Below are positions 734 through 17,375 of a DNA stretch of 64,000 bases, in pieces. The DNA is taken from IMG/VR virus record IMGVR_UViG_3300046507_000639, positions 1 to 64,000 of that record; one strand, 5' to 3'. The stretch comes from a virus (Duplodnaviria > Heunggongvirae > Uroviricota > Caudoviricetes). A program made the position numbers and the translations under genes. Under the pieces are notes generated by a model, which worked only from the letters and a program-made list of their open reading frames with translations, did no database searches and was not told where the DNA came from. Position 1 is the stretch's first letter, and each line of letters opens with the position of its first letter.

Positions 734-1318
734 TTATCTTTGTTGCAGGTGGTAGGCGTAGTGGCGCTCTGACGCCTCTGCCATGTTCTTCGGGAACGGC
801 AGCGCGTTCAGGACGTCGTTGATGCCGGCGAGCATCATGGACACCGCCCACTCAGGCCGCATCTGACCAGTCAGGGTCCCCAGGCCGGGAGTCACGACGT
901 CCATGAGTCCAAACGCTAGAGCGTGGTAAACCGCGGCGCGCATCGCGAGCCGCACCGAGATCGGGTCAGGGATCGTCATCGGCACCCGCATGGTCGGCGT
1001 CGAGATCATGATGGGGAACTTCTCGTCGTCCGTCGGTATCAGCAGGGCTTCTCCGACCAGGAGCTCGCCGAAGGTGCGAGTCTTGATCTGCTCCTGCAGC
1101 CTCTTCTCGACCTTCTTCCCGAACTTGTGGACGTACACCGCGTCGATGCCGCCGTCCATGAAGCCGAAGGAGTTCGCGGGAGACACGATCGCGTCTCCTG
1201 AGAGGTCGAATATGTCTCCGAGGTAGAAGTCGTAGTGGGTCGACGCCTTCCAGACGGCGATGAGGTCCTCGTTGTAGTCGGCGAGGGTTATCTTAAAGTC
1301 TTCGAATTTAGCCATCAC
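734..1318 (-). CDS. macro-domain protein (ADP-ribose binding / MacroD-like)
   Basis: Motif IVSPANSFGFMDGGIDAV matches the macro-domain signature (xNAANxxLxxGGGV). 194 aa. Confidence 0.6.
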   Translation of the reverse strand: MMAKFEDFKITLADYNEDLIAVWKASTHYDFYLGDIFDLSGDAIVSPANSFGFMDGGIDAVYVHKFGKKVEKRLQEQIKTRTFGELLVGEALLIPTDDEKFPIMISTPTMRVPMTIPDPISVRLAMRAAVYHALAFGLMDVVTPGLGTLTGQMRPEWAVSMMLAGINDVLNALPFPKNMAEASERHYAYHLQQR

Positions 1319-1794
1319 TCGTGACTGTGCTCCTCAGTGGTGAAACCCTCGCGGGTGTAGACGACAGAGACGTGGTCGTCGAAGATCATCTCCATGTAGG
1401 CGTCCTCGATGGAGCGGATGACCTTGCTCAGTTCATCGAACTCGTTGAACGCGCGCTCGACTTCGTCTTCCGTGACGTCGTCGTACGTCGAGACGATGTC
1501 CTCCACGCTCTGGTCCTCTTCACCCTCTTCGAAGCCGAGGTCGTCGATGGCCTCGTCCGAGAAGTAGAGGTGCGGCTCGCCCACGCGGAAGTAGGTCGAG
1601 TCACCGTCGTTCCAGTAAGGGGTGAACTGCACCCACGCGACCGCGTGCGCCTTGGGGTTGCTCGTGAAGAACTCTTCGAAGACGGACGCGATCATCTTCT
1701 GGGTCTCACCCCGGATTTCTTCCTGCAGCGCGTCTATCTTCGCCTGCAGCTCGTCGTACTTGGCCTTGAGGGCCGTCGTGTCTACCTTAGTCAT
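1315..1794 (-). CDS. hypothetical acidic protein
   Basis: 159 aa ORF with high GC3. ATGA overlap with the downstream gene. Confidence 0.6.
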   Translation of the reverse strand: MTKVDTTALKAKYDELQAKIDALQEEIRGETQKMIASVFEEFFTSNPKAHAVAWVQFTPYWNDGDSTYFRVGEPHLYFSDEAIDDLGFEEGEEDQSVEDIVSTYDDVTEDEVERAFNEFDELSKVIRSIEDAYMEMIFDDHVSVVYTREGFTTEEHSHE

Positions 1795-2146
1795 ACGCGA
1801 GTTCCTTGCTCTCGACTCGTTTCTTCATTCCGCGGCCGCGCATCCAGTCCTCAGGAGGGATGCCCGACAGCCATTTCTCAATCGTTGGGATGAACCCGCA
1901 GTCCTCGACGACGTGGTCCTCCGCGACGTTCCTCACGTGCACCGTCTTGCCGTCGCTGTTGACGATCACGTGACCGAACAGCTGCTCGCACAGGTAGATG
2001 CCGAAGGTGTTGTGGAGGATCGCCCGGTGCCGGGTGTCGGCGTAGGCGCTCTTCGTCGAGTCGAACCAGTCGTGGATAGCGATGTAGTCTTCTTCCCGCC
2101 CTCCGTATCGCTTCACGGAGTTACGCGCGTGTGACCAGGGCTTCAC
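1787..2146 (-). CDS. hypothetical protein
   Basis: 119 aa ORF. GTG start overlaps the stop of an upstream micro-ORF (GTGA). Confidence 0.55.
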   Translation of the reverse strand: MKPWSHARNSVKRYGGREEDYIAIHDWFDSTKSAYADTRHRAILHNTFGIYLCEQLFGHVIVNSDGKTVHVRNVAEDHVVEDCGFIPTIEKWLSGIPPEDWMRGRGMKKRVESKELAYD

Positions 2147-2271
2147 AGTAAGATGATCAGCGCCACGAGCACGATGAAGGCCGCGGCGACGAGGAGCGGC
2201 CCGCGATCCCAGTTGAATGCCTTGCCGTTGGAATTGACGGTGTTCATTTTCTCAAGTTTAGTCACGTTCAT
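2143..2271 (-). CDS. micro-ORF, single-TM peptide (34-42 aa)
   Basis: MNVTKLEKMNTVNSNGKAFNWDRGPLLVAAAFIVLVALIILL. Hydrophobic C-terminus. Stop overlaps the next gene's GTG. Below the ORF-track length cutoff. Confidence 0.35.
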   Translation of the reverse strand: MNVTKLEKMNTVNSNGKAFNWDRGPLLVAAAFIVLVALIILL

Positions 2272-2614
2272 CTCCAAATGGTGCGTCATACGCGACGGTT
2301 CCCAGGAACTCGTCGATCGACTGCTTCGGTCGCTCGTCGAGCTTCTCGATGTGTTCCACGAAGGGGCCCGAGAGCCCCTTCTCTACTTCTGATATGCGCT
2401 CGTCGATACTCAGGGAGTACCATTTCTCGCCCGGAAAGACGTTGATGCGCGTGAAGTCGTTCTTGCCGATCTTGTACTTACCGACGATGCCTCCGCGGTA
2501 CTGGACCGTGAGGGTGTCGATCGTACGCTCGACGACGTATCCGAGCTCAGTCGGACGGACCGACGTGGTGACGTGGCAGAATTCTCCCGTGAACGGGACG
2601 ATCTTAGAAGACAT
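2258..2614 (-). CDS. hypothetical protein (start at internal Met MSSKIVPF)
   Basis: The Arg-rich N-terminal extension of ORF 2258..2698 overlaps the upstream gene in another frame. Confidence 0.5.
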   Translation of the reverse strand: MSSKIVPFTGEFCHVTTSVRPTELGYVVERTIDTLTVQYRGGIVGKYKIGKNDFTRINVFPGEKWYSLSIDERISEVEKGLSGPFVEHIEKLDERPKQSIDEFLGTVAYDAPFGDERD

Positions 2615-2855: not shown

Positions 2856-3334
2856 TGCGCTTTCTCCTCGTATTCTACCTTCGAGCAGAACTTGCCCTTG
2901 TAGGACTCGTAGACGTGGGCGAGGAACTCGTCACCCTTGGCTTCGTCGGCTTTCTTCCAGAACCAGTCACGGACCTTACCGAGACCGAGGCCCGCGAAGC
3001 CCAGCAGCGCGATCGCTACCGCGAAGGCCGCGATGAAGCCGAAGACGATGCCGAAGCCGACTGCTCCCGACAGTCCCGCGAAGTACATCACGATGAACGG
3101 GAGTGACCAGGCGACCAGGTTGATGCCGAGGCGGAGGGCCGGCCACACCAGGACCGCGCGCCAGTAGGCACAGAAGTCGGTGGGCGGGAAGCGACGGTCA
3201 CGGTAGGTCTTCTCGGCGTCGTTGAAGTTCTTCAGGTCTGGCCAGTACCGTGAACCGCGACTCGTTGAGTCCAGGATCAGGCTGTAGTACACGAGCCAGC
3301 GGTAGTGCCAAGAGTCTCTCTTGACTTTAAACAT
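2852..3334 (-). CDS. hypothetical membrane protein
   Basis: 160 aa with two or more TM segments (LPFIVMYFAGLSGAVGFGIVFGFIAAFAVAIALLGFAGLGL). Confidence 0.6.
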   Translation of the reverse strand: MFKVKRDSWHYRWLVYYSLILDSTSRGSRYWPDLKNFNDAEKTYRDRRFPPTDFCAYWRAVLVWPALRLGINLVAWSLPFIVMYFAGLSGAVGFGIVFGFIAAFAVAIALLGFAGLGLGKVRDWFWKKADEAKGDEFLAHVYESYKGKFCSKVEYEEKAQ

Positions 3335-4055
3335 TCGTCACCTTTCCGTAGATTAGCTCCCGGCGATCGCCGAAGGACATTGACTTGAAGTCGACGTTGA
3401 GTTTCTCGACTCTATGGCGTACTATACCATCTTCTCGAAGAATGTCAACCCTTTTAATGAAGTTTCCCGGACGAATCTCGGGAGAACCGATCATCTCGTA
3501 CTTTTCTCGAGTCGAGACGCCGTGCAGCGCCTTGGCACCGAACTCGTGGTGCGCGTGGTCCTGGATCAGGTTGCGCTCGGCGTCCTTGTAGCGCCACACG
3601 AGCATGTTCGTCGCCTCGTCCTCGTCGGGCATCTCGCAGACGCGGGCGTCGAACGACACCTCGGGGATGAAGCCGAACCGCTCGTAGAAGTTCGAGACGA
3701 ACCTGGCCGTGAAGTAGGACGACACGACCGAGCAGAGCTTCATCACCTTGCCGTCGAACGGGAGCTGGGACACGTCGTTCTTCATTGGGTGAAAGAACAG
3801 GGAGACCTCGTCGCTCTGATGGAAGCCGAGGGCGAAGTGAAACTCCTCGACCGTATCTATCGTGGAGTTGACGAAAACCTGCTCGAAGCCCGAGTCGCGC
3901 GGCTTCACCAGCTGGGCGCGGCCGACGAGTCCCCTCGTAAACTTCGAGAACGAGCGCCCGTCGAGCCTCATGTAGACGGGTCTGGACCCGTCCACCTTCG
4001 ACACGAACGCGTCCTCGTAACCCTTCATCCGGTCACCGAACTCGTCTCTCTTCAT
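3327..4055 (-). CDS. Thg1-like protein (tRNA-His guanylyltransferase family / TLP)
   Basis: MKGYE..VYMRLDGRSFSKFTRGL resembles the Thg1 N-terminal palm motif (I/VVRIDGRxFxKF). Start is taken at internal Met (MKRDEF), giving an ATGA overlap with the upstream stop. Confidence 0.65.
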   Translation of the reverse strand: MKRDEFGDRMKGYEDAFVSKVDGSRPVYMRLDGRSFSKFTRGLVGRAQLVKPRDSGFEQVFVNSTIDTVEEFHFALGFHQSDEVSLFFHPMKNDVSQLPFDGKVMKLCSVVSSYFTARFVSNFYERFGFIPEVSFDARVCEMPDEDEATNMLVWRYKDAERNLIQDHAHHEFGAKALHGVSTREKYEMIGSPEIRPGNFIKRVDILREDGIVRHRVEKLNVDFKSMSFGDRRELIYGKVTNV

Positions 4056-4987
4056 TTCTTGTCTACCTCGATGAACGGTACGGCCGAGCCAGGCACCATC
4101 GTGGTCGGCAGGTTGCCGCTCCACTTCTCGGCCTTCGTGAGCTCGATGATGTTCGGGTTGTCCCGGAGGGCGTCACCCTTGGCACGGAGCGCCGAGGCTT
4201 CTGCCTCACCGATCGCCTTGATCGCGGTGGCCTGCGCGTCGCCTGCTACCTGGACCGCCTTGGCCTTCGCGGTGGCCTCTGCCAGCTGCGCGTCGGCGGC
4301 CGCCTGAGCGTTGATCACAGTGATCTTGGCCTGGACTTCCTGCTGCTGCCTCTGCTGCTCCAGCTTCTGGACCTCGACCTGAGCGGTCATGCGGGCCTCG
4401 ACTGACTTCTCGTAGGCGTCGCTGAAGTCGATGTTCTCGACCTGCACGCTGTCGATCTGCACGGGGCCGTCCATGCCGGCCTCGACTTCCTTCTGGACGT
4501 CGGCGTTGAACTGCGCGCGGTTCTGGATGACCGACACCGCGGTGTACTTGCCGAAGACAGTCTTGACGTCCTGCGGAGCGTGGCGGGCGATCAGTCGGCC
4601 CTCGAGGTTGTCGAGGTTCCCGTACTCAGAGTAGAGCTTGAGCGCGTCAGATGCCGGCACGTGCCAAGACACAGTCACGCGCATCGCGGCGGGCTGCTGG
4701 TCCTGTGAGTAGGCCTGCATCTCGGCGCGCTCTTCAGCACTGCACTGGGTGCCGGCGACGCAGGTCCAGTAGGTCACCTGCTGGGTGACCGGGACCTTCA
4801 CGACGCTCTCGAAGAAAGGTATCTTGAAGTGAAGCCCGGGCTCTGCAGTGGAGACGGCCAGACCATTGTGCAGGATGACGCCTCGCTCGCCCTGGTCGAT
4901 CGTGTAGAACGACCCGAACGAGAGCAACGCTATAGCAGCTGCGCCGGCGCAAAGCGCCACGAACCTCGGGTTGATTGTCTTGCTCAC
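4052..4987 (-). CDS. SPFH/band-7 (prohibitin/HflC-like) membrane protein
   Basis: N-terminal TM, then the SPFH core (GERGVILHNG..HFKIPFFE), then a long coiled-coil tail (Q/A/E-rich). Confidence 0.8.
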   Translation of the reverse strand: MSKTINPRFVALCAGAAAIALLSFGSFYTIDQGERGVILHNGLAVSTAEPGLHFKIPFFESVVKVPVTQQVTYWTCVAGTQCSAEERAEMQAYSQDQQPAAMRVTVSWHVPASDALKLYSEYGNLDNLEGRLIARHAPQDVKTVFGKYTAVSVIQNRAQFNADVQKEVEAGMDGPVQIDSVQVENIDFSDAYEKSVEARMTAQVEVQKLEQQRQQQEVQAKITVINAQAAADAQLAEATAKAKAVQVAGDAQATAIKAIGEAEASALRAKGDALRDNPNIIELTKAEKWSGNLPTTMVPGSAVPFIEVDKK

Positions 4988-7193: not shown

Positions 7194-7199
7194 ACTATT

Positions 7200-7362: not shown

Positions 7363-7437
7363 TGGCTGAGGGACCAGGGTTCGAACCTGGGCTTCACGGG
7401 TCAGAGCCGAGCGTACTGCCGGTTATACGATCCCTCA
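7363..7437 (-). tRNA. tRNA-Gln(CUG)-like, CCA encoded
   Basis: Acceptor TGAGGGA/TCCCTCA. T-arm CCAGG-TTCGAAC-CCTGG. Anticodon loop CTCTGAC. One mismatch in the anticodon stem. Confidence 0.5.
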
Positions 7438-7441
7438 AAAC

Positions 7442-7516
7442 TGGTACTCCTACTCAGAATCGAACTGAGTCATGCCGGTGTGTGATACCGGTGCCTTCCC
7501 ACCTGGCGCTAGGAGC
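7442..7516 (-). tRNA. tRNA-Val(CAC), CCA encoded
   Basis: Acceptor GCTCCTA/TAGGAGT. Anticodon arm CCGGT-ATCACAC-ACCGG. T-loop TTCGATT. Confidence 0.6.
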
Positions 7517-7517
7517 A

Positions 7518-7592
7518 TGGTACGTCTGCGTGGAATCGAACCACGTCTTGTCGCCGTGTCATGGCGATGCCTTCCCACCTGGCTCCAGACGC
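7518..7592 (-). tRNA. tRNA-Val(GAC), CCA encoded
   Basis: Acceptor GCGTCTG/CAGACGT. Anticodon arm TCGCC-ATGACAC-GGCGA. T-loop TTCGATT. Confidence 0.6.
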
Positions 7593-7603
7593 ACATTAAA
7601 ATT

Positions 7604-7676
7604 TGGTCGGGGTAAGAGGAATCGAACCTCTCCACCACGGCTCCGGACCGCAGTAAAGCACCAGCTAGTCTACCCC
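7604..7676 (-). ncRNA. tRNA-like gene with atypical anticodon arm (possible Pro-CGG, C33)
   Basis: Perfect acceptor CGGGGTA/TACCCCG and T-arm AGAGG-TTCGATT-CCTCT. Best anticodon helix has two G-U pairs and loop TCCGGAG. Confidence 0.35.
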
Positions 7677-7684
7677 GTCGTAGT

Positions 7685-7807
7685 CTATTTATTCCTGTTC
7701 TTCACCGACTTGACTACGTCGATGAGTACCATTACCGCCGCGATCGCAAGCGAGGGGACGCATATCGCGAGCAGCACGGCGACTGTGATCGACGATAGCG
7801 TGAACAC
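7685..7807 (-). CDS. micro-ORF, single-TM peptide (40 aa, GTG start)
   Basis: SD GGGGAGG sits 7 nt upstream of GTG. VFTLSSITVAVLLAICVPSLAIAAVMVLIDVVKSVKNRNK. Start overlaps the stop of 7810..8109. Confidence 0.45.
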   Translation of the reverse strand: MFTLSSITVAVLLAICVPSLAIAAVMVLIDVVKSVKNRNK

Positions 7808-7809
7808 GA

Positions 7810-8109
7810 TCAGTCCTCCCCGTCGAGCAGTGCGAGCAGCTTGTAGGCCAGCATCGCTTCGCCTTCAGTGATCCCGTAGTCAAAGCCGTCCGAGTAGACA
7901 TCGTCGGCGTTGCCGTACGAGACAGGAACACCGTCGCGGTCGAGACCGAAGTAGAAGGCGCCGACTTGGTCCTCAGCGAGGCCGTCCGGCAGTCCGCGCT
8001 CTTGGATGTACGTCGCGACTTGTGCTTCATACGTCGCGATCATTTTCTCGAGCTCAATCTTGAGTATCGAACTGATGTCACTGTTCATCGCAATGCTGTC
8101 GTCTTCCAT
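7810..8109 (-). CDS. hypothetical acidic protein
   Basis: 99 aa, D/E-rich. The overlapping Ser/Thr/Arg-rich ORF 7689..8030 is rejected. Confidence 0.6.
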   Translation of the reverse strand: MEDDSIAMNSDISSILKIELEKMIATYEAQVATYIQERGLPDGLAEDQVGAFYFGLDRDGVPVSYGNADDVYSDGFDYGITEGEAMLAYKLLALLDGED

Positions 8110-8127
8110 TCACTTCCTCCATAAAAT

Positions 8128-8203
8128 TGGTACTGGGCGCCTGGATCGAACAGGCTCCTCGCGGTTCACAGCCGCGCTTGCACACCAGCTACACTAGCCC
8201 AGC
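8128..8203 (-). tRNA. tRNA-His(GUG) lacking G-1 (U-1/A73), CCA encoded
   Basis: Acceptor GCTGGGC/GCCCAGT. Anticodon arm CGCGG-CTGTGAA-CCGCG. T-arm GCCTG-TTCGATC-CAGGC. Discriminator is A; the nucleotide 5' of G1 is U. Confidence 0.6.
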
Positions 8204-8400
8204 ATATTCTCATCGGCACCCGCGTGGCTGACCAGTCGGTCGAGCATCTCCAGGGGCCAGGTTCGACGCAGCAGTCCAGTAGACCTCTCCGTCAGCAGTT
8301 CAATAGTCTCGGTCTCTTCGTCTACGATGACGACGGCACTGAGGTGCTTGATCATCTCGTACGGGTAGAACTTTACGGCGTCCCACCGGGCCTTGTCCAT
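8194..8400 (-). CDS. hypothetical protein (start at MDKARW)
   Basis: ATGA coupling to 8403..8627. The 3' end overlaps the tRNA-His 5' end by about 10 nt. Confidence 0.4.
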   Translation of the reverse strand: MDKARWDAVKFYPYEMIKHLSAVVIVDEETETIELLTERSTGLLRRTWPLEMLDRLVSHAGADENMLG

Positions 8401-8402
8401 GA

Positions 8403-8627
8403 TCAGCACGTTCCGCACTTTATCACCCTCAGTATCTCTCGAGACGAGACCAGCTCGCACTTCGCGGTGATCTCGTCGATGCGTCTCTTGGGCACGTCGT
8501 AGTGAGGGAACTTTCCACCGTGGAACCAGGACCGGGAAATCCCGAGGTCCCTCGCCATCTCGTGGAGGTTCTCTACCGAGAACGGCTCGCAGACCAGGTG
8601 TCTCTTGCCGTCCGTCAGGTACCTCAT
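8403..8627 (-). CDS. hypothetical protein
   Basis: 74 aa ORF. Confidence 0.5.
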   Translation of the reverse strand: MRYLTDGKRHLVCEPFSVENLHEMARDLGISRSWFHGGKFPHYDVPKRRIDEITAKCELVSSREILRVIKCGTC

Positions 8628-8710
8628 CTCAAGAACGAGTCTAGCATGATCATCGCCAGAGCCCCATAGTGGATGATGAAGTTCTCGTGTATCGGTACGT
8701 AAAACTGCAT
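8624..8710 (-). CDS. micro-ORF (28 aa) MQFYVPIHENFIIHYGALAMIMLDSFLR
   Basis: Consensus promoter TTGACA-N17-TATATT (8735..8763), SD GGAGAAA, ATG, and a stop overlapping the next ATG (ATGA). Confidence 0.45.
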   Translation of the reverse strand: MQFYVPIHENFIIHYGALAMIMLDSFLR

Positions 8711-8734
8711 CACTCGTTTCTCCATTCTGGAACT

Positions 8735-8763
8735 AATATAACTCATTCTGAAATGATTGTCAA
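8735..8763 (-). promoter_or_regulatory. sigma70-type promoter (TTGACA-N17-TATATT)
   Basis: tgtcaa on the + strand at 8758-8763. Confidence 0.55.
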
Positions 8764-8945
8764 CCGATTTCTTCATCAGTTTCGAATGGAGTGATGATGA
8801 AGCCGAACTTCAACGGGTCGAACTCGTCGAAGACGTCTGCCATCGTGTCCGTGTCAAGGAACTTCTCGAAGTCAACGATGACTTCTTCCTTAGACTCGAG
8901 GTCCACGACTACGATCTGGACGCGCTTGCCCTTCCAGTGCGACAT
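8760..8945 (-). CDS. hypothetical protein
   Basis: 61 aa. SD GGAGAG. Confidence 0.55.
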   Translation of the reverse strand: MSHWKGKRVQIVVVDLESKEEVIVDFEKFLDTDTMADVFDEFDPLKFGFIITPFETDEEIG

Positions 8946-8966
8946 TCAACTCTCCATGTTAAGGGG

Positions 8967-9056
8967 TGGAGCACGCGACAGGACTCGAACCTGCATCAGC
9001 CTCACGGCCACTCCGTTACCTTTGTGCACGTTCGAAGCGTGCGGGGATACGCGTGC
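8967..9056 (-). ncRNA. tRNA-like RNA A (non-canonical; family of three)
   Basis: Perfect 7-bp acceptor GCACGCG/CGCGTGC. T-arm GCAGG-TTCGAGT-CCTGT. Discriminator U, then CCA. Positions 15-31 form the hairpin GCACG-CTTCGAA-CGTGC. No canonical D or anticodon arm. Confidence 0.4.
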
Positions 9057-9057
9057 A

Positions 9058-9137
9058 TGGAGGTCACGGCGGGACTCGAACCCGCATTTTCATCCATTAC
9101 CTAACTCGAGCTTCGCAAGCTCGGCGGTTACGTGACC
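9058..9137 (-). ncRNA. tRNA-like RNA B (same architecture as A)
   Basis: Acceptor GGTCACG/CGTGACC. T-arm GCGGG-TTCGAGT-CCCGC. U-CCA 3' end. Hairpin CGAGC-TTGCGAA-GCTCG at positions 15-31. Confidence 0.4.
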
Positions 9138-9142
9138 GTATG

Positions 9143-9171
9143 TGTCTATTTATTACAGATCGACGCGATTG
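9143..9171 (-). promoter_or_regulatory. promoter for tRNA-like RNAs B and A
   Basis: TTGACA-N17-TAAATA ends about 5 nt upstream of the RNA B 5' end. Confidence 0.45.
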
Positions 9172-9353
9172 TCAACGGGTTTCTTCATGTAGATCGAGAT
9201 GAGCTCGTGGAAGTCACCCTGACAGCTCTTCATCTTGTTGTACCGGTCGACGACGCCGTCGTGGGCCATCATGAACTTATCGGAGTCGCCGCTCTTGGCT
9301 ATTTCCATCAGCTTGATGAAGTCATCGGCGAGGAACACGAACGGTGCGGCCAT
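9153..9353 (-). CDS. hypothetical protein
   Basis: 66 aa ORF. Confidence 0.55.
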   Translation of the reverse strand: MAAPFVFLADDFIKLMEIAKSGDSDKFMMAHDGVVDRYNKMKSCQGDFHELISIYMKKPVDNRVDL

Positions 9354-9535
9354 CAGAGGTACATCGCTTTCTGCACGGCCTTGACCGCCTTGTCGGCTGC
9401 TTCTGCGCTGTCGAACTCACCCACGAAGTTCTCGAAGGTGACCTCGGTGCCCTCGAAGGCCGAGAACTTTCTGACGTGAGAGGTCACGAGGAACTTCCCG
9501 TGACTCTCTTGTATCTGGAACCAGGTCTTGCTCAA
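9353..9535 (-). CDS. hypothetical protein
   Basis: 60 aa ORF. Confidence 0.5.
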   Translation of the reverse strand: MSKTWFQIQESHGKFLVTSHVRKFSAFEGTEVTFENFVGEFDSAEAADKAVKAVQKAMYL

Positions 9536-9702
9536 TCGAAACGTCTCCTGACCAGGTCTTCAGCGCGGGACAGGGCTTCTTCGCGTGAACAGTACGTCGC
9601 GTTGAGGATCAGCTTGGCGTACATCTTCACGACGCCTGGGCGTGCCTTCGCCCAACTCTCGCGAGAATTCTTTTGAACCTCGTCTCGGAGGCCCTGCGAC
9701 AT
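9532..9702 (-). CDS. hypothetical protein (start at MSQGL)
   Basis: The Arg-rich N-terminal extension is rejected. Confidence 0.4.
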   Translation of the reverse strand: MSQGLRDEVQKNSRESWAKARPGVVKMYAKLILNATYCSREEALSRAEDLVRRRFD

Positions 9703-9710
9703 GACGGCAG

Positions 9711-9884
9711 TCACAGGAGCCCCTTCGGCATGTAAGGAACGAAGATGACTGTCTCTTCTCTGTCTTCGGTGTATCGGACGTCGACGGCGGTGTGCCATCT
9801 GCACTCTTCGCCGTGCTTCATGGCTCCGGACTCGTCTCTTTGGGAACCGCAGTGTGAACAGGACTCACGGGGAACTTTCTTCAC
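9711..9884 (-). CDS. small Cys/His-containing protein (57 aa, GTG start)
   Basis: SD AAGGAG sits 5 nt upstream of GTG, with a GTGA overlap to the YqeY gene stop. CSHCG..C.WH pattern. Confidence 0.4.
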   Translation of the reverse strand: MKKVPRESCSHCGSQRDESGAMKHGEECRWHTAVDVRYTEDREETVIFVPYMPKGLL

Positions 9885-10303
9885 AGGAACTCCTTAGCGA
9901 TCTTCGACGCGAGGGTGCCGTCGTACAGGCCGGCGAAGTTGTCCTTGAGGTGCTTCATCATGAGGCCCAGGTTCGACTCGTCGAGCTCGGTGAAGATCTC
10001 ACGGATCTTCTCCTCGGTCAGCTGAGTCGGCAGGTACTTCTCGATGATCCCCTTCTCGAACTCGACCATCTTGATCGCGTTCTCTGGTAGGTTCTCGATC
10101 GCGAGCAGCTCAGCGTTCTTCTTGAGGTACGACTTGAGCACAGTCACGACGTGCTGCTCGGTCAGTTCGACTCTGCCTTCTGCCGTGATGGCAGCAGACT
10201 CGATCGTGCCGATCAGGGCCGACAGGAACGCCGCGGTCGACGACTCACGAGCCTTGCGGGCTGCCAGGAAGTCGTCCTTTATCGTCTGCAGTAGATCGCT
10301 CAT
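9881..10303 (-). CDS. GatB/YqeY-domain protein
   Basis: 140 aa. FLAARKARE..LSALIGTIESA..YLKKNAELLAIENLPENAIKMVEFEKGIIEKYLPTQLTEEKIREI fits the YqeY family pattern. Confidence 0.65.
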   Translation of the reverse strand: MSDLLQTIKDDFLAARKARESSTAAFLSALIGTIESAAITAEGRVELTEQHVVTVLKSYLKKNAELLAIENLPENAIKMVEFEKGIIEKYLPTQLTEEKIREIFTELDESNLGLMMKHLKDNFAGLYDGTLASKIAKEFL

Positions 10304-10526
10304 GTTTTCTCTTCTTTATCTGTGCGTTGATGATCAGGGCGGTGTATCGACCCTCGTGCTCGACCGTTCTGGGCTCCTTACCCGTGAACACCGCGTACTC
10401 GTTCATCGGGTACTCCACGCCGTCTTCGATGACGGTGCCGACGTAGCCGTTGAGGATGCACTCGAGGCGAAAGTCGAGTATCTTCAGGACTTCACCGTAG
10501 GTGCAATTGAGCGCGTAGGTCTTCAT
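10245..10526 (-). CDS. hypothetical protein
   Basis: 93 aa. The 3' end overlaps the YqeY gene by about 59 nt. Confidence 0.4.
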   Translation of the reverse strand: MKTYALNCTYGEVLKILDFRLECILNGYVGTVIEDGVEYPMNEYAVFTGKEPRTVEHEGRYTALIINAQIKKRKHERSTADDKGRLPGSPQGS

Positions 10527-10690
10527 CTCTTCTTCCTGGGTCGCGTGTCAGTCAGTCCCGGACACAGGTCAAACAGGAGCTCGCAGAAGACCGCGAGCGG
10601 CTTCAGCAGGCCGAACGTCAGCCCAAAGAGCACGATCCGGAACGGGATGAACGGGAACTTCCACCAGTTGGCCTTGAGGAACTCGATCAC
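10523..10690 (-). CDS. small membrane protein (55 aa, GTG start)
   Basis: VIEFLKANWWKFPFIPFRIVLFGLTFGLLKPLAVFCELLF. GTGA overlap with the upstream stop. Confidence 0.4.
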   Translation of the reverse strand: MIEFLKANWWKFPFIPFRIVLFGLTFGLLKPLAVFCELLFDLCPGLTDTRPRKKR

Positions 10691-11244
10691 TTGGCGTAGT
10701 CCCACATGATCGGCAGCTCGCCGACGGTGACGGTCGCGCTCTTCTTGAAGACGAGCAGCTTCTTGTTCATGTCTTTGCGGAGGATCGCGTCCACCTCGGC
10801 CTTGAGCGCAGCGGAGTTGCACATCTTCTCGACCTTGTAGCTCGTGGCCTCGATGATGATCATGTCGAGCTCGGCCTGCGACTTGGCAGGCTCGGGCGCC
10901 GGCGTAGCTCGGGACACGACTCGAAAGAACTTGGCCGATAGGAACGGAGTCTCGATGTACGCTTCTAGCTGCGCGCGGTCGAACTTGTTGAGCTTCTTCT
11001 GCTTGCCCCGGAAGATGAGGTTGCCTGTAGGACCGCGTCCGACCTCGATCACCTCGAGCGGTTGACCCTTGTTGAAGGAGTCGTACTGCTTGTAGCCCTG
11101 GTAGTTGAACTTGACGACGTCACCGACGGCGAGCTCACTGATGTCGTCGAAGTCTCCGACGGAGACCGCGTTCACGAGTGCATTCATATCATCATCCTCA
11201 AAATTGGAAAAAAAGTCCCAGACCCACTCATCACTGTCGTTCAT
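10687..11244 (-). CDS. hypothetical protein
   Basis: 185 aa. SD GGAG. Confidence 0.65.
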   Translation of the reverse strand: MNDSDEWVWDFFSNFEDDDMNALVNAVSVGDFDDISELAVGDVVKFNYQGYKQYDSFNKGQPLEVIEVGRGPTGNLIFRGKQKKLNKFDRAQLEAYIETPFLSAKFFRVVSRATPAPEPAKSQAELDMIIIEATSYKVEKMCNSAALKAEVDAILRKDMNKKLLVFKKSATVTVGELPIMWDYAK

Positions 11245-11262
11245 CGTGTTCTCCGGGAAATT

Positions 11263-11349
11263 TGGTGCGCGCAGAGGGACTCGAACCCTCGGTGGGCTTA
11301 CGCCATCCGGTTAAGAGCCGGAACCTATCGCCGCTAAGGTGATACGCGC
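11263..11349 (-). tRNA. type-II-like tRNA (long variable arm), anticodon loop CTCTTAA, identity uncertain
   Basis: Acceptor GCGCGTA/TGCGCGC. T-arm GAGGG-TTCGAGT-CCCTC. Anticodon arm TCCGG-CTCTTAA-CCGGA. Discriminator A, then CCA. Confidence 0.45.
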
Positions 11350-11574
11350 TTAGACTTTGTTGAACCTCTGTGCGTCGTCATCCGACACGCGGAAGTCCAA
11401 GATGACTCGACCGGTGGCCTTCGACACCCGCTTGAGGTGTGCGTTGGCTTCGATCAGGACCTCCTCGTGGGACTTACCGACGTTCAGGACGTTGAAGTAG
11501 TCCGTGCCAGCGATGTTCCCCGGGAACTCGAGGTCCTTGTAGGAGTATACGAAGAGTGTGTACTTTGCGTTCAT
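11350..11574 (-). CDS. hypothetical protein
   Basis: 74 aa. Promoter 11603..11631 and SD GGAAAGGG. Confidence 0.6.
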   Translation of the reverse strand: MNAKYTLFVYSYKDLEFPGNIAGTDYFNVLNVGKSHEEVLIEANAHLKRVSKATGRVILDFRVSDDDAQRFNKV

Positions 11575-11602
11575 GATGAAGTCCCTTTCCTATCGTAGTT
11601 CC

Positions 11603-11631
11603 ATCTTAAATGGAACCGACCGGTTTGTCAA
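11603..11631 (-). promoter_or_regulatory. sigma70-type promoter (TTGACA-N17-TAAGAT)
   Basis: tgtcaa on the + strand at 11626-11631. Confidence 0.5.
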
Positions 11632-11647
11632 CTACATCTTTAAATTT

Positions 11648-11731
11648 TGGTGGGCATGGTGGGACTCGAACCCACACGCGCTAGGCACCAGGCTCTCGAC
11701 CTGGCAAGGCTACCAATTTCATCACACGCCC
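11648..11731 (-). tRNA. tRNA-Leu(GAG)-like, type II, CCA encoded (C33 in anticodon loop)
   Basis: Acceptor GGGCGTG/CATGCCC. T-arm GTGGG-TTCGAGT-CCCAC. Anticodon arm CCAGG-TCGAGAG-CCTGG. Confidence 0.45.
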
Positions 11732-11743
11732 AATTATCGCCAA

Positions 11744-11811
11744 CGTCACGACGGGATTCGAACCCGCGTTTCCCCCTGAACGGGGGCGTTCTCTCCGCTA
11801 AACTACGGGAC
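11744..11811 (-). ncRNA. degenerate tRNA-Glu(UUC)-like element, no encoded CCA
   Basis: T-arm CGGG-TTCGAAT-CCCG. Acceptor has 2 mismatches (GTCCCGT/TCGTGAC). Anticodon-like hairpin CCCC-CGTTCAG-GGGG. Short D region. Confidence 0.3.
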
Positions 11812-11904
11812 TCAGGAGTCGGTGTTCCCGGCAAGGACCGCTTTCCCCTGTGGCTCAACCTACGGGATCGGCTTGCCGACCTACCCGCCTGGGTCTACTA
11901 AACT

Positions 11905-12823: not shown

Positions 12824-13053
12824 AAGCTTTCTGCCTCCTCGATAGTCTTGAGGTGCTTCCTGATCCAGCGCATCAGGAACACCGATTTCTCAACGGCGTT
12901 GAACGTGGCCGTGCCGGCGTCGTGGGTGGTGACCGGGAACCGGAAACCGTTCTCACACTCGTACCAGAGCTCGTTGTGCACCCAGTGGGTGAACTTGCAC
13001 CACTTTTCTTTGCCCACACAATCCTTGATGTCCATCACGCTGCCTCCATCCAT
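12820..13053 (-). CDS. hypothetical Cys-rich protein
   Basis: 77 aa. Confidence 0.55.
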   Translation of the reverse strand: MDGGSVMDIKDCVGKEKWCKFTHWVHNELWYECENGFRFPVTTHDAGTATFNAVEKSVFLMRWIRKHLKTIEEAESL

Positions 13054-13229
13054 TCTCGATAGTCTATATCATTTTCTTGAGCGAAGTCAACCAGCATTTC
13101 ACACTGGGACTTGCTGTACACCTCGAAGGGCGACTGCTCCTCGAAGACTGCCTCCCAGAGGTAGTGCGTGACGACGATCTTGCCGTCGAAGACTTCCCAC
13201 CCGCCGTCAAAGAACTGTACGATGCTCAT
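13035..13229 (-). CDS. hypothetical protein (start at MSIVQFF)
   Basis: ATGA coupling with 13226..13657. Confidence 0.45.
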   Translation of the reverse strand: MSIVQFFDGGWEVFDGKIVVTHYLWEAVFEEQSPFEVYSKSQCEMLVDFAQENDIDYREWMEAA

Positions 13230-13657
13230 TTGTGTAGCTCCAGGTGCTTGATGACCCGGTGTGCCGGCGAGTCCTTGTAACATAACACGTAGGCGCAGGT
13301 CTCGACGGGGATGTAGTGCGTGTAGCTGCCGTCGCGCAGCGGGTAGGTCGGGTCGAGGATGACGCCTGAGACCCCAGAGTCTTTCCTGACGGCGCGTTCG
13401 GCCTCGATCTGCGCGATGAGCTCCTTGATGTCGTCCATGGAGCCTCCGTCGAGCGTCAGCACGGTACCGAAGTCCTGAGAAGTCCCGAAGGCCCAGTAAC
13501 TGTACAGATCTTTCGCGTCACGCTCGGCGTGCTTCGCAGCCGCATTGGCGGCATGGGAACCTTGCGCGATCGCCTTGCCCGGGTTCATAGACTTCAAGTC
13601 GGTGCGCATTATGATGAACAGGATCGGAGTCCAACCCTTCTTTGCGTCGTCAGTCAT
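13226..13657 (-). CDS. peptidyl-tRNA hydrolase, PTH2 family
   Basis: ILFIIMRTDLKSMNPGKAIAQGSHAANAAAKHA matches the PTH2 signature (VvRtDLgMgkGKiaAQcsHAa). Confidence 0.65.
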   Translation of the reverse strand: MTDDAKKGWTPILFIIMRTDLKSMNPGKAIAQGSHAANAAAKHAERDAKDLYSYWAFGTSQDFGTVLTLDGGSMDDIKELIAQIEAERAVRKDSGVSGVILDPTYPLRDGSYTHYIPVETCAYVLCYKDSPAHRVIKHLELHK

Positions 13658-14046
13658 TTCATCCTCTTGTATTTATCGGTGAACTCGGCCAGAGCCGCGG
13701 CGTAGACGCCCTCGGACTGCTTGCCCTTCTTGGGGTTCTCGTACAGGTAGTCGAGTCGCACTTCTTCTGCGTAGAACAGCGCGTTCAGCTCGTGGGCCAT
13801 CCGGAGCCAGGCCAGGAAGAACTCCGCCGACATGTCGTAGACGGCGTACCTGTTGGCGTTCCTGACGTAGTCGCTCCACAGCCTCTCGACCGGGCCGTCG
13901 TCGATGCAGCACTCGTGCGCATGGATCAGCTGACGGTACGAGTACGTCTTGCCGTTGAGCAAGTGAATGAAATCCCACCGGACTTCCTCTTCGTTCCACG
14001 CCGGCTTGAAGCACTCGAGCGGGTCGCTCTGCTTGAAGTCACTCAT
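13654..14046 (-). CDS. hypothetical protein
   Basis: 130 aa with ATGA coupling. Confidence 0.6.
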   Translation of the reverse strand: MSDFKQSDPLECFKPAWNEEEVRWDFIHLLNGKTYSYRQLIHAHECCIDDGPVERLWSDYVRNANRYAVYDMSAEFFLAWLRMAHELNALFYAEEVRLDYLYENPKKGKQSEGVYAAALAEFTDKYKRMK

Positions 14047-14330
14047 CTCTTCACCCTGTTCACGTCGTTCACGGCGAACTTCTTGACGGCGTCCTTGACC
14101 CTGTAGACCACGTCGGCCTCGATCGTCGGCGAGTCAATGATCACCTCGGCCCGGACGTCGTCGTTCCTCAGCGGGTCGACGTGATCCGAGATACGTATCT
14201 TGTGGGTCGTACCGCGCCGCGTGTAGTACAGCGACGTGGTGTGCTTTCCTGAAATGCGAAAGAAGCCGTGGTTGACCGCCAGTACTCGGCAGGCCAAGTT
14301 GAGGGCTTCACCTTTAGTTAAGACTTTCAT
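14043..14330 (-). CDS. hypothetical protein
   Basis: 95 aa. Consensus promoter 14361..14389 and SD upstream. Confidence 0.6.
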   Translation of the reverse strand: MKVLTKGEALNLACRVLAVNHGFFRISGKHTTSLYYTRRGTTHKIRISDHVDPLRNDDVRAEVIIDSPTIEADVVYRVKDAVKKFAVNDVNRVKR

Positions 14331-14360
14331 TTCTCAACCCTTTCCGATTTGGTTGAGAAT

Positions 14361-14389
14361 AGTATATTCATTCTAGATAGAAATGTAAA
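14361..14389 (-). promoter_or_regulatory. sigma70-type promoter (TTTACA-N17-TATACT)
   Basis: tgtaaa on the + strand at 14384-14389. Confidence 0.55.
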
Positions 14390-14501
14390 CGACTATTTTT
14401 AGTCAAAGTTCTCAATGGCCTGGAGAGGCGATTCTTACGAAAACGCGGAAGATGGGTCGTCCCACATCCTCCGCGCCTTAAACGTCGTTAGTGAAGCCGG
14501 T

Positions 14502-15953
14502 TCAGATCGCGGCGCGCTCCCGGACCTCCTTGAAGGTCGTCGTGCGCAGGACCTTGCCTGCCTCCCACACCCGCTCGAGGTAGTTGTGGGCGCCGTGGTG
14601 GCCGACGGCGTTCGCCAGCTTGAGGTCGTCCTCCCGCATCGAGTGGTACGTCCCGTCGAAGTAGACGACTGCCTGGCGGCCGGCCTTGGACGCCTTAGAT
14701 GGGTCGGTCTTCGGCTTCTTCTGGACGTCCACCCAGTTCACGTGGCCCGCGACCTCGCCGGGACGGTAGTGGACCGCGTTGGTCTTCATCGCCCAGGACT
14801 GGTCGTCGCGCATCACGCCCTGGAGCAGCTTGCCGCCCATGCCGAACACGATGTTCTCACAGCTGAAGTCGGCGTCGCCGACCGCGATGAGGATCTCATT
14901 GATGGAGTCGTAGTTGACGCCGTCGCCCTGGATCACGCGCACCTTGGCGTTGAGCACCCTGTAGCCCTTCGAGTTGATCGTGCCGCCGAACTTCTCCCAG
15001 AGGAGATTGAGCACGCGCGGGACGATCTGGGTGGGCTCTCCGCTGTCGGGGCGCACCACGATGAACCCGTTGCGGTCCGTGATCGCAGCGTGGTTGTCGC
15101 GGCCGACGATGTTCGTCACGAAGTTGTCGAGGTCGTAGCTGTCGGCGACCAGGGATATGATCGGGAAGCCCATGCCCGTGAAGGTCTCGATCGTGGCGCC
15201 GATGAACTTCGACTCGCCCTCCGGGCCGTTGATGGTGGTGACGGAGTGCTCCGTGGCCGGCACCGACACGATGACCGGGCCGTCTCGATCGAGGTTGTGG
15301 TCGTAGTAGAGGACCGCCGCGTCGATCGCCTCGAACGTGTCGGAGCCGATGAAGTTGACCGCGTGCGCCAGACCTCCGAGCGCGGCCGACTCACCGCTCG
15401 AGACTCCTCGGGCGCCGAAGTCGTTGAGCATCGTGGGGAGCAGCACGTCGGGGTCGAGGTCAGAGTTGAGCTCGATGAAGACCTTGAGGTTCTTCTTGAT
15501 CTCACGCGAGAGCGTCGCGACCGACGACGGGTACCAGACGGCGCGGAGCAGCGATGTCTCGATCACGCTGATGAGGCCGGGGTACTTCTTGTCGTGCGAG
15601 GTGACCTGGACCACCGGGACGCCGTGCTTCACGGGTGTGCCCTCGGGCAGCGCCTGGATCGTGATCGGCAGGAAGCCGTTGTAGTGCGTGACGACGTGCT
15701 CCCACATCTCGCGTGGGAACGGGATCATGGCGGACTTGGCCTTGCGCTCCTCGCGGTCGATGTCCTCGACGGTGATCGGCTTCGAGAGGTACTCGCGGAC
15801 GTACGCCTGGAGACCGAAGAAGACGATCTCCTCGGCCCAGCCGTGGCGGGCCTCGATGTACGAGGTGAGGCCGTCGACCGACCGAGAGATGACGAACGGG
15901 TGCGAGAACTTGTAGCAGTCGCTCGCCGAGATAACGTTTCTGTTGAGCAGCAT
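14502..15953 (-). CDS. nadV: nicotinamide phosphoribosyltransferase (NAMPT/NadV)
   Basis: 483 aa. NAPRTase-family architecture end to end. The + strand ORF 14415..15977 is its mirror artifact. Confidence 0.8.
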   Translation of the reverse strand: MLLNRNVISASDCYKFSHPFVISRSVDGLTSYIEARHGWAEEIVFFGLQAYVREYLSKPITVEDIDREERKAKSAMIPFPREMWEHVVTHYNGFLPITIQALPEGTPVKHGVPVVQVTSHDKKYPGLISVIETSLLRAVWYPSSVATLSREIKKNLKVFIELNSDLDPDVLLPTMLNDFGARGVSSGESAALGGLAHAVNFIGSDTFEAIDAAVLYYDHNLDRDGPVIVSVPATEHSVTTINGPEGESKFIGATIETFTGMGFPIISLVADSYDLDNFVTNIVGRDNHAAITDRNGFIVVRPDSGEPTQIVPRVLNLLWEKFGGTINSKGYRVLNAKVRVIQGDGVNYDSINEILIAVGDADFSCENIVFGMGGKLLQGVMRDDQSWAMKTNAVHYRPGEVAGHVNWVDVQKKPKTDPSKASKAGRQAVVYFDGTYHSMREDDLKLANAVGHHGAHNYLERVWEAGKVLRTTTFKEVRERAAI

Positions 15954-15965
15954 TTGAAACTCCTT

Positions 15966-16295
15966 CTATTCTGCTAGGGTGTAGGGGATGTTGTAGAAAT
16001 CTGGTTCTTCGTCGGGAAAATCATCGAACGGCTTCTCCGACTTCTTGGTGTACGGGCCCATGCTGATCGTGACCTCTTCCACGATCAGGCGGCCACCGGA
16101 ATTGCACTTCTTGCAGTCGTACCGTATCGAGTCGTACTCGCCGCGATGGTAGTCTGTCAGTTCTTCCTTGTAGTAGCGTCCAGTGCCCTTACACAAGTCG
16201 CACATCACGACCGTCTGCTTCCTGTGCACCTTGATCGTCTTCGAGTAGTGGCGCATGAGTTGGTCATGCGTCTCTCGCGCTTCATTCTTTTTCAT
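15966..16295 (-). CDS. hypothetical zinc-ribbon protein
   Basis: CDLCKGTG ... CKKCNSGG. Confidence 0.55.
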   Translation of the reverse strand: MKKNEARETHDQLMRHYSKTIKVHRKQTVVMCDLCKGTGRYYKEELTDYHRGEYDSIRYDCKKCNSGGRLIVEEVTISMGPYTKKSEKPFDDFPDEEPDFYNIPYTLAE

Positions 16296-16307
16296 GATGT
16301 AGTGTCC

Positions 16308-17375
16308 TCAGAAGCCGAGCAGGTCGGCGATGACGTCCCAGTGATCCTCAAAGAAATAGTGCTCCATGTTCTGGACCAGGCTGATCGGGTACCAGTGAGC
16401 CTTCGCGGCGTCGTCCGAGCCGACGACCTTCGGCAGCTCACCGACGTTGCTCAGCTCGAAGAGGTGGGCGTGGGTGATGATGTGGGAGCGGTTGGAGCGG
16501 TAGGGGTCGTCGTAGACCTCTCGCTTCGTGATGGACCCGCGCAGCACCTTCTCGGGCACTTTCAGCCGCGTCTCCTCGCGGAGCTCACGGATGACGCCGT
16601 CGGTGACCTTCTCGCGTCGGTTCAAGAAACCTCCGGGTAGCGCCAGGAGACCTCGACCGTACTCGCGCCCGCGCTCGATGAGGAGGACGTGGCCGGCCTG
16701 GACGACGCAGGCGTCGACCGTGACGTGAGGACCCTTGCCGTAGACCGCTTCGTACTTCTGCTCGTAGGCCCAGTCTGCGAAGAGCCGGTCGAACTCGGAA
16801 CGGTCGTGCGTGATCATGTCCTCCATGAGCAGCCGTCCCGCGAGGACCATCTCGTGGTCGTAGCCGACTTCACCGGCGAACACCTTCTTGCGGATGTTCG
16901 TGGAGGAGAGGATCTGCTCGTCCACCTCCTCAGGTCGCACCGCGATCGAGTTGTCCCACTGCGGGAAGCTGTTGAGGTAGTAGCTCGTGCCGTCCTTGTA
17001 CATCCCGGCGAGGGCGACCTTGTGGTTGAAGTCCTTGAACGTGTTGTTCGTGAAGACGGCCACGTTGGAGTGCTGGGCGATGGCCTCGCTCACGGCGTGC
17101 TGCACGCCCGCGATCCAGCGAGTGTCGTTGTACCGGTAGTCGTTGCAGGAAGTGACGATGACCCGGCCGCGGTCCACTTCGGGGAGCGATGCCAGGATGA
17201 TGTCGCGCCTCTCGGCGAAGGTGAAGGGGACCCGTGTGTTCCTGGGGCGGTTGGCCGAGCCGACGACTACTATGACGTAGTCTGAGACGGTCAGGGCTTT
17301 CTCGATGACCCTGAGGTGTCCGAGGTGAAACGGGGAAAAACGGCCGATGAACACGGCGTAGTCATAGCTGATCAC
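16308..17375 (-). CDS. natV: bifunctional NMN adenylyltransferase / Nudix ADP-ribose pyrophosphatase (NadM-Nudix, NatV-like)
   Basis: N-terminal HxGH motif (FSPFHLGH). C-terminal Nudix box GGFLNRREKVTDGVIRELREETRL. GTG start with SD AGAGGAG. Confidence 0.8.
   Translation of the reverse strand: MISYDYAVFIGRFSPFHLGHLRVIEKALTVSDYVIVVVGSANRPRNTRVPFTFAERRDIILASLPEVDRGRVIVTSCNDYRYNDTRWIAGVQHAVSEAIAQHSNVAVFTNNTFKDFNHKVALAGMYKDGTSYYLNSFPQWDNSIAVRPEEVDEQILSSTNIRKKVFAGEVGYDHEMVLAGRLLMEDMITHDRSEFDRLFADWAYEQKYEAVYGKGPHVTVDACVVQAGHVLLIERGREYGRGLLALPGGFLNRREKVTDGVIRELREETRLKVPEKVLRGSITKREVYDDPYRSNRSHIITHAHLFELSNVGELPKVVGSDDAAKAHWYPISLVQNMEHYFFEDHWDVIADLLGF

Follow-up and report, generated by a model that had tools for sequence, protein, structure and literature searches.

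We analysed a window of 64,000 nucleotides, positions 1 to 64,000 of the IMG/VR record IMGVR_UViG_3300046507_000639 (Caudoviricetes), for the relation between a macrodomain gene and an NAD+ salvage gene pair, natV and nadV. A preliminary description of the window had joined these genes, together with a second nucleotidyltransferase and a hairpin upstream of natV, into one extended module. According to the reading that we favour, to which we give a probability of roughly 0.72, the macro gene is a separate accessory gene outside the module, the salvage genes form an operon of the known NadV/NatV (NARP2) pathway, the second nucleotidyltransferase is an unrelated PPAT-like protein, and the hairpin is incidental. 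The four open reading frames (ORFs) on which the preliminary description was built are present on the minus strand, all score above the Pfam gathering threshold, and their matches are far beyond chance. The features under discussion are as follows.

734..1318, minus strand: predicted Macro2-type (Ymx7-like) macrodomain protein of 194 residues (Pfam, AlphaFold2, Foldseek and family profile)
7363..11813, minus strand: nine tRNA genes (Gln, Val, Val, Pro, His, Arg, Lys, Leu, Glu; ARAGORN)
14502..15953, minus strand: nadV, predicted NAMPT (Pfam, NCBIfam and structure match)
15966..16295, minus strand: ORF of 109 residues with two DnaJ-type CXXCXGXG zinc-finger motifs (weak match to Pfam DnaJ_CXXCXGXG, below the cut-off)
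16308..17375, minus strand: natV, predicted bifunctional NMN (nicotinamide mononucleotide) adenylyltransferase and ADP-ribose pyrophosphatase (Pfam, match to 2qjo, motifs)
17402..17423, minus strand: hairpin in the natV 5' untranslated region (UTR), with a 7-bp stem (CGGGAGC/GCUCCCG) and an 8-nt loop, -13.1 kcal/mol
17467..17495, minus strand: predicted sigma-70-like promoter upstream of natV, TTGACA-17 nt-TACTAT with an upstream TG
32159..32839, minus strand: predicted HIGH-superfamily nucleotidyltransferase with a T-K-G-H motif, PPAT-like (Pfam, PHROG, AlphaFold2/Foldseek)
33038..34027, minus strand: DUF6267 protein, conserved upstream partner of the T-K-G-H transferase (Pfam, 142.7 bits)

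The macro gene, which has an alternative ATG start at 1315, is the second-to-last gene of a leftward early cluster and lies 13.2 kb downstream of nadV. All genes of the span 734..17375 are on the minus strand; however, more than 25 genes, the nine tRNA genes and at least five minus-strand promoter-like sites stand between nadV and the macro gene, and the tRNA cluster separates NARP2 and the macro gene into different transcription units. The span that the preliminary description took as a module thus holds more than 25 unrelated ORFs besides the tRNA genes and several promoter-like sites.

For the comparison with other viruses, related NatV loci were retrieved with a two-sequence NatV alignment (single-protein NatV scans of viral and metagenome contigs returned none), and the viral NatV and Macro2 loci were viewed with a 10-kb flank each. 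Among the 14 related viral NatV loci, nadV directly followed natV in 11, and a Macro2 gene was found within 10 kb of natV in none. Conversely, NAMPT was present within 10 kb in 4-5 of the 80 IMG/VR Macro2 loci, three of which are identical over the compared regions. The phages phiM12, phiM7, phiM19 and phiN3 (phiM12 group; Emdodecavirus) resemble the window in having adjacent natV and nadV, PTH2 downstream and a macro ortholog. In phiM7, however, this ortholog (gp168, annotated as 'Appr-1-p processing protein', 46% identical) is found at 21 kb on the upstream side of natV, compared with 13 kb downstream in the window. Additionally, phiM7 carries a second macro gene, gp217, 1.5 kb past nadV, for which the window has no counterpart; gp217 is unrelated to the window macro protein and to the RNaseH_like ORF at the equivalent position. 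The closest macro homologues in cultured phages belong to Mae-JY35 (50% identical) and P106B (48%), and neither NAMPT nor NatV was found in these two genomes. Bacterial homologues are standalone genes beside unrelated housekeeping genes, a context that is uninformative on function. The window macro protein has matches in at most 37 phage records, and NAMPT-like genes occur in 2018. Reported frequencies are 40% for macro domains and 22% for NadV in medium phages, and 56% and 33%, respectively, in jumbo phages (PMC9503650); at such base rates, a macro gene and NadV in one large myovirus are unremarkable. The proposal that the macro gene extends the NAD+ module is therefore not upheld, given the 13-kb distance, the separate transcription unit and the lack of a nearby Macro2 gene at the 14 NatV loci.

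The macro protein itself is assigned to the Macro2-type clade, with an ADP-ribose-1''-phosphate phosphatase activity that we infer from this clade. It scored 34.6 bits against the Pfam Macro model PF01661 (cut-off 22), the kind of search on which the preliminary description had staked its macrodomain call, and this call is confirmed. The AlphaFold2 model (pLDDT, the predicted per-residue confidence, 94.8) gave yeast Ymx7/YMR087W as the top Foldseek match (1njr; E 1.4e-10, TM score 0.68) among 217 macrodomain-type matches in the PDB at E <= 1e-3. The family profile also matched 1njr best, with E 3e-13 over profile positions 1-167, including the N-terminal strand-helix extension. The search with the macro protein returned 1879 homologues, and over 52 aligned homologues the residues S46, P47, N49, S50, G52, F53, M54, D55, G56, D59, E85, G89, P108, T109, R111, P144 and G147 are invariant, giving the motif SPANSFGFMDGGxD...PTxR...PGxGTG. 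Most members of the family carry a precomputed match to Pfam Macro_2 (PF14519). The window protein shares with Ymx7 the SP(A/G)NS(F/Y)G...GGxD and PGxxTG motifs as well as the N-terminal extension; it differs in being viral, shorter (194 versus 284 residues) and only ~23% identical. Identity as a MacroD/YmdB O-acetyl-ADP-ribose deacetylase was not supported, as the best equivalog model, PRK00431, gave 59.7 bits against a cut-off of 246. A PADLOC search at E <= 0.01 resulted in no match for the macro protein, hence none to DarG, and none for seven other window proteins.

Within the Macro2-type clade, Ymx7 alone has been studied; it dephosphorylates ADP-ribose-1''-phosphate to ADP-ribose and lacks de-MARylating activity (PMC6397177). 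As this hydrolysis is the only characterised activity of the clade, the window protein most likely acts on a soluble ADP-ribose derivative, for which ADP-ribose-1''-phosphate would be the best candidate substrate. The ADP-ribose released would then possibly be consumed by the Nudix domain of NatV. Since the Nudix domain could consume the macro product, any link to NARP2 would be metabolic and loose and would not make the genes a genetic module.

In the Microcystis phage Mae-JY35, the macro gene (L016 10033-10590) is located inside the virion structural module, between portal/head and tail genes, and related genes in P106B, Gifsy-1, SEN4 and SEN5 bear the annotation 'tail assembly-like' or 'tail fiber'. 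This tail annotation is probably a mistake; otherwise, the virion would contain the protein.

The NAD+ salvage genes were identified as the preliminary description had proposed, that is, as the NadV/NatV pair. NatV, with a GTG start and a GAGGAG ribosome-binding site, passes the Pfam gathering scores for CTP_transf_like (46.3 bits) and NUDIX (61 bits), and its translation contains HLGH, SSTNIR and a complete Nudix box, GGFLNRREKVTDGVIRELREETRL. It aligns end to end with the NadM-Nudix structure 2qjo of Synechocystis (222 bits, E 1e-64). The best NCBIfam model, the bifunctional NMN adenylyltransferase/Nudix PRK05379, gave 325 bits, below the cut-off of 397, which marks NatV as a divergent member. 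For NAMPT, the Pfam scores were 53.5 bits (NAMPT_N) and 130.8 bits (NAPRTase), and the score on NCBIfam PRK09198 (464.6 bits) is over the equivalog cut-off of 405; residues 6-481 align to bacterial and human NAMPT structures, with 294 bits for the bacterial structure 7yqo. The segments PAxEHS and DFGxRGVSS, which we take to hold the phospho-histidine and the nicotinamide-specifying aspartate, are conserved in the window protein.

The 109-residue ORF (phrog_20107, annotated as unknown function) sits between natV and nadV on the same strand, with a 12-nt gap on either side, and the three genes form what is predicted to be one tight operon. No homologue of this ORF was detected in the 14 related NatV loci, including L098-L101. 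Its phiM7 homologue, gp172, is encoded 2 kb downstream from the Macro2 gene of that phage. In a consensus scan of positions 14000-18500, four sigma-70-like sites were found versus 0.8 expected. The preliminary description placed a consensus promoter upstream of natV; a sigma-70-like site does lie there, at 17495..17467, although 10 of its 12 consensus positions match, so it is a good rather than a full consensus promoter. Another promoter-like site follows nadV.

The window pair represents the NadV/NatV (NARP2) pathway already published for Vibrio phage KVP40, here predicted in a new high-GC T4-like phage. NARP2 rebuilds NAD+ and defeats type I Thoeris and DSR2 (bioRxiv 10.1101/2024.02.11.579819). 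In the window, natV, the zinc-ribbon ORF and nadV would be transcribed together from the sigma-70-like promoter; NAMPT would convert nicotinamide and phosphoribosyl pyrophosphate (PRPP) to NMN; the N-terminal domain of NatV would adenylylate NMN to NAD+; and its C-terminal Nudix domain would cleave ADP-ribose to AMP and ribose-5-phosphate. As in KVP40, the pathway may keep NAD+ available in infection and counter NAD+-depleting defences. The two phages agree in their two enzymes and in the domain architecture of these (NAMPT_N plus NAPRTase; NMN adenylyltransferase plus Nudix), and in both the genes are adjacent and co-oriented. The window differs in the 109-residue CXXCXGXG ORF between them, which is the only local peculiarity, and in that its phage is a high-GC relative of the phiM12-group rhizobiophages.

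The hairpin in the natV 5' UTR is real, and its 8-nt loop is as first described; its position is 17402..17423 and not 17408..17428, and its stem has seven base pairs and not six. A regulatory role, which had been suggested for it, does not find support. The window contains 115 perfect GC-rich 6-bp stems and 24 7-bp stems, versus 83 +/- 10 and 17 +/- 4 in first-order Markov simulation, and stems like that of the natV hairpin occur at ~1.8 per kb; unlike the protein matches, the hairpin is thus not beyond chance. The whole natV 5' UTR folds no more stably than shuffled sequences (z = -1.06). The hairpin is missing from the natV upstream regions of the four closest loci, L098, L099 (phiN3), L100 and L101, which retain just the ribosome-binding site, and the best Rfam match had E 0.51, with 17 bits against a gathering score of 46. 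The hairpin is probably incidental.

The second nucleotidyltransferase had been described as an HxGH enzyme belonging to the NAD+ module. The CTP_transf_like domain is indeed present (27.2 bits, cut-off 21); the motif, however, is P-P-T-K-G-H followed by S-A-S-M-V-R, and the protein is PPAT-like. It has no NCBIfam match and corresponds to phrog_3041 and phrog_395, both 'cytidyltransferase'. With its AlphaFold2 model (pLDDT 93.2), the top 36 Foldseek matches were all PPAT, and NadM appeared only at E 0.09; the family profile gave weak matches to MJ0951 and PPAT only. The Joint Genome Institute (JGI) name 'nicotinic acid mononucleotide adenylyltransferase' is attached to one of 27 homologues. 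The T-K-G-H motif, the lack of an NCBIfam match and the PPAT structural matches rule against an NMN or nicotinic acid mononucleotide adenylyltransferase.

Homologues of this transferase occur in 526 phage records, 375 of them Synechococcus phages, which lie outside the ten commonest genera with NAMPT. In cyanophage syn9, the DUF6267 homologue gp183 is directly upstream of the transferase homologue gp184, a homologous pair in the same gene order as in the window, and in Stenotrophomonas phage DLP6 one small ORF separates the two homologues. The transferases of T4-like cyanophages are longer (382-722 residues), with extra C-terminal regions. Although phrog_455 matches both the DUF6267 protein and the transferase, none of the 27 retrieved homologues is a fusion, so the link between them rests on conserved adjacency. 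From motif, model and gene order, the transferase is linked to DUF6267 and placed outside the NAD+ pathway; its pairing with DUF6267 in phages without NAMPT speaks against the module membership claimed before. We propose that it works with the DUF6267 partner. The pair spans 32159-34027 (minus strand) in the window, 2818-4930 in L014 and 2173-6064 in L015. The public gene call of the transferase (P0121, 192 residues) begins at the Met immediately before PPTKGH; such a start would lose the first Rossmann beta-strand, and the true start is therefore probably an upstream TTG or GTG.

The neighbours of viral Macro2 genes bear on the possible source of the macro substrate. The 80 viral Macro2 genes from IMG/VR had the following neighbours at up to 10 kb.

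NADAR: 13 loci
KptA/Tpt1: 7 loci
Metallophosphoesterase: 7 loci
2H phosphoesterase: 6 loci
Thg1: 5 loci
ARG: 5 loci

The association of NADAR with Macro2 spans several lineages. In locus L076, the Pfam-confirmed order is ARG, NADAR, Macro2, KptA, Thg1, phosphoesterase, 2H, NatV-like and NAMPT; L088 has the same order, with its ARG and NAMPT ends resting on tblastn. One uncultured phage clade (L076 7501-19075; L088 6449-20553; also L041, L043 and L053) thus carries an NAD+-dependent RNA repair cluster joined to NARP2, and the KptA-2H-Macro chemistry has been described for RNA repair (PMC9503650). L088 encodes a fusion of NADAR with a tRNA-binding domain. The NatV-like protein of L076 (16055-17089) has a degenerate HxGH motif, LHDQQ, whereas its L088 homologue keeps LHEGH; the adenylyltransferase half of the L076 protein may be inactive.

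The window shares part of this arrangement.

3327..4124, minus strand: Thg1-like protein, a predicted 3'-5' nucleotidyltransferase for tRNA 5'-end repair or G-1 addition (Pfam Thg1, 80.7 bits)

The Thg1-like gene is 2 kb upstream of the macro gene. Its true start is probably near 4055, and the protein is called as 242 residues in L004 and L005. Proximity of Macro2 and Thg1 was also seen in L053, L073, L075, L076 and L088. As in the L076 and L088 clusters (compare PMC9503650), Macro2 is close to a Thg1-like gene and NARP2 is in the same region; the window differs in having no KptA, 2H, NADAR or ARG in its 64 kb, and its macro and Thg1-like proteins are 35% and 27% identical to those of L076. 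None of the four was found in 48 kb of phiM7 either. Divergent forms among the small ORFs between the macro and Thg1-like genes were also considered and rejected, as tblastn gave nothing at E <= 0.01 and paired HxT/S motifs occurred in no ORF.

On this basis, a last step in NAD+-dependent RNA repair is a possible role for the macro protein, which we regard tentatively and at clearly less than even odds. KptA/Tpt1 would remove a tRNA 2'-phosphate to give ADP-ribose 1''-2'' cyclic phosphate, a 2H esterase would open it, and the macro protein would dephosphorylate the product, with the Thg1-like, CCA-adding, PTH2 and RlaP proteins as partners and with KptA and 2H supplied by the host or from outside the window. 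The one activity known for the Macro2 clade is a step of this pathway. KptA lies ~0.3-0.7 kb from the macro gene in seven of the 80 viral Macro2 loci, which also carry metallophosphoesterase (7/7), 2H (6/7) and Thg1 (5/7), and the Klebsiella jumbo phage FBKp24 has a macro match at 2 kb from kptA; the window adds the nearby Thg1-like gene, the CCA-adding enzyme, PTH2, YqeY, RlaP and nine tRNAs. However, KptA and 2H were undetected in the window and in the 48 kb of phiM7, and Sinorhizobium phages account for none of 98 KptA-bearing records. The seven KptA-linked loci come from essentially one clade, their macro proteins sharing 62-74% identity with the L076 protein; they therefore count as few independent events and may reflect inherited synteny. 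Moreover, RNA repair overlaps with the separate accessory gene, as it supplies one source of substrate for the same enzyme activity. Reversal of ADP-ribosylation of macromolecules by toxins (DarT, CmdT, ParT-like), as a counter-defence of the orphan-antitoxin type, appears quite unlikely. Phage orphan antitoxin-like enzymes against DarTG are documented (PMC11825919, PMC13309987), the DarG macrodomain 5m3i ranks eighth among the structural matches (E 5e-7), and the ADP-ribose-binding motifs of the macro protein are intact. Yet the identity to 5m3i is just 17%, the PADLOC search gave no match to the DarG model, the MacroD/YmdB equivalogs of NCBIfam remained far below their cut-off (59.7 versus 246), and the best matches belong to a clade reportedly without de-MARylating activity (PMC6397177). 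A non-catalytic binder or sponge of ADP-ribose-derived immune signals is highly improbable. Macrodomains that only bind ADP-ribose and phage sponges of Thoeris signals both exist; the invariant polar residues N49, D55, D59, E85 and R111, however, are typical of a conserved active site, and they hold across 52 diverse members, including housekeeping-like bacterial copies.

The dedicated module extension would have the macro protein strip ADP-ribose from derivatives or modified targets that host defences produce and feed NatV and NadV, as one anti-defence system directed at Thoeris, DSR, SIR2 or ADP-ribosyltransferase toxins; we consider this unlikely. It draws on the location of macro and NARP2 in one early same-strand region downstream of sigma-70-like promoters, on the nearest relative (IMG/VR contig 3300046694_000196), which keeps both with natV ~14.5 kb from the macro gene, on the presence of both in phiM12-group phages, and on L076 and L088, where Macro2 is 6-10 kb from NatV-like and NAMPT genes. 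A conceptual precedent is RyDEP of mycobacteriophage DyoEdafos, which converts cyclic ADP-ribose (cADPR) to ADP-ribose reused by NARP1 (PMC13232231), that is, an ADP-ribose-releasing hydrolase that feeds phage NAD+ reconstitution. RyDEP, however, has an RyR-domain fold, NARP1 uses ADP-ribose directly, and the two genes are neighbours in DyoEdafos, compared with 13 kb apart in the window; the starting substrate of NARP2 is PRPP rather than ADP-ribose (bioRxiv 10.1101/2024.02.11.579819). The intervening genes and tRNAs, the flipped position relative to natV in phiM7, the 14 NatV loci without a nearby Macro2 gene, the closest macro homologues in phages without NARP2, the few macro matches relative to NAMPT-like genes, and the commonness of both macro and NadV in large myoviruses likewise count against the extension. 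A metabolic link between the macro protein and NatV is chemically plausible, with precedent in L076 and L088, and would plausibly run via ADP-ribose-1''-phosphate and RNA-repair chemistry and not via reversal of ADP-ribosylation. Taken further, Macro2, the NatV Nudix domain and NAMPT might make up a recycling route from ADP-ribose-1''-phosphate to ADP-ribose, to ribose-5-phosphate and, via host Prs and NARP2, to NAD+, a speculative scheme that is also improbable; either RES-type NAD+ phosphorylase toxins or KptA-dependent RNA repair would supply its ADP-ribose-1''-phosphate.

Several observations weigh against our preferred reading of a separate, Macro2-type accessory gene. Pfam Macro_2 (PF14519) gave 20.4 bits for the window protein, below the cut-off of 27, and the sole studied member of the type, Ymx7, is the distant relative noted above (~23% identity). 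A source of ADP-ribose-1''-phosphate (KptA, 2H, RES) was not found within the 64 kb, which are part of the genome only. In the clade of L073/L075/L076 and L088, Macro2 lies 6-10 kb from NatV-like and NAMPT genes in one co-oriented cluster, and both the window and its closest relative have Macro2 and NARP2 in the same early region. With this clustering and the co-location kept, the functional connection may exceed the credit given to it here.

Judged by its genes, the window (59% GC) is the early and replication region of a T4-superfamily phage. The T4-type replication set comprises a split family-B DNA polymerase, UvsX, a gp41-like helicase, primase, the gp44/62 clamp loader, the gp45 clamp and RegA, and an RNase H is inferred by homology to phiM7 gp188. 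Additional genes encode PhoH, a CCA-adding enzyme, PTH2, YqeY, RlaP/NrdC.11, the Thg1-like protein, glycosyltransferases and a C5 methylase. A comparison with 50,697 phage records gave no close nucleotide match. By protein similarity, the Sinorhizobium phages phiM7, phiM12, phiM19 and phiN3 come nearest among cultured phages, and the relation is distant: NAMPT is 63% identical to those of phiM7 and phiN3, NatV is 59% identical to phiM7 gp210, and the 48 kb of phiM7 examined contained homologues for only ~20 of the 99 window ORFs. The metagenomic contig 3300046694_000196 is nearer (NatV 71%, NAMPT 69% and macro 68% identical). The genes for tRNA maintenance are located as follows.

9881-10303, minus strand: YqeY
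13226-13657, minus strand: PTH2
34309-35547: CCA-adding enzyme
50806-51795: RlaP/NrdC.11

Together with the nine tRNAs, they represent a large tRNA maintenance set in the early region. The tRNA-His(GUG) gene (8128-8203, minus strand) has G1-U72, discriminator A73 and an encoded CCA; G-1 is not encoded, and the upstream base is T. We take this type to be of alphaproteobacterial style and hence a clue to the host; alternatively, the phage tRNA-His could be a substrate of the phage Thg1-like enzyme. The window begins within a plus-strand gene (1-468), the counterpart of a DUF7338 gene that, in contigs L003-L006, opens an oppositely oriented tail-fibre-like cluster (DUF7338, DUF4376); positions 469-708 are minus strand. 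The macro gene is therefore placed at the boundary of the early and structural regions.

The main value of these results lies in averting an over-reading of the module. That ADP-ribose-processing domains may work together with phage NAD+ salvage has been proposed before (PMC9503650). As a by-product, a pair of DUF6267 and a T-x-G-H transferase is recognised as conserved from cyanophages to the window phage. A phage macro protein can now be placed in the Macro2-type (Ymx7-like) clade, which has received little study, and the Macro2 neighbourhoods, with NADAR and, in one clade, with KptA, Thg1, metallophosphoesterase, 2H and NARP2, direct attention to ADP-ribose-1''-phosphate chemistry. If the recycling route were true, it would widen the reach of NARP2 to NAD+-destroying effectors whose product is not plain ADP-ribose, and clusters of the L076/L088 type would be the complete version of the system, with the window as a reduced one.

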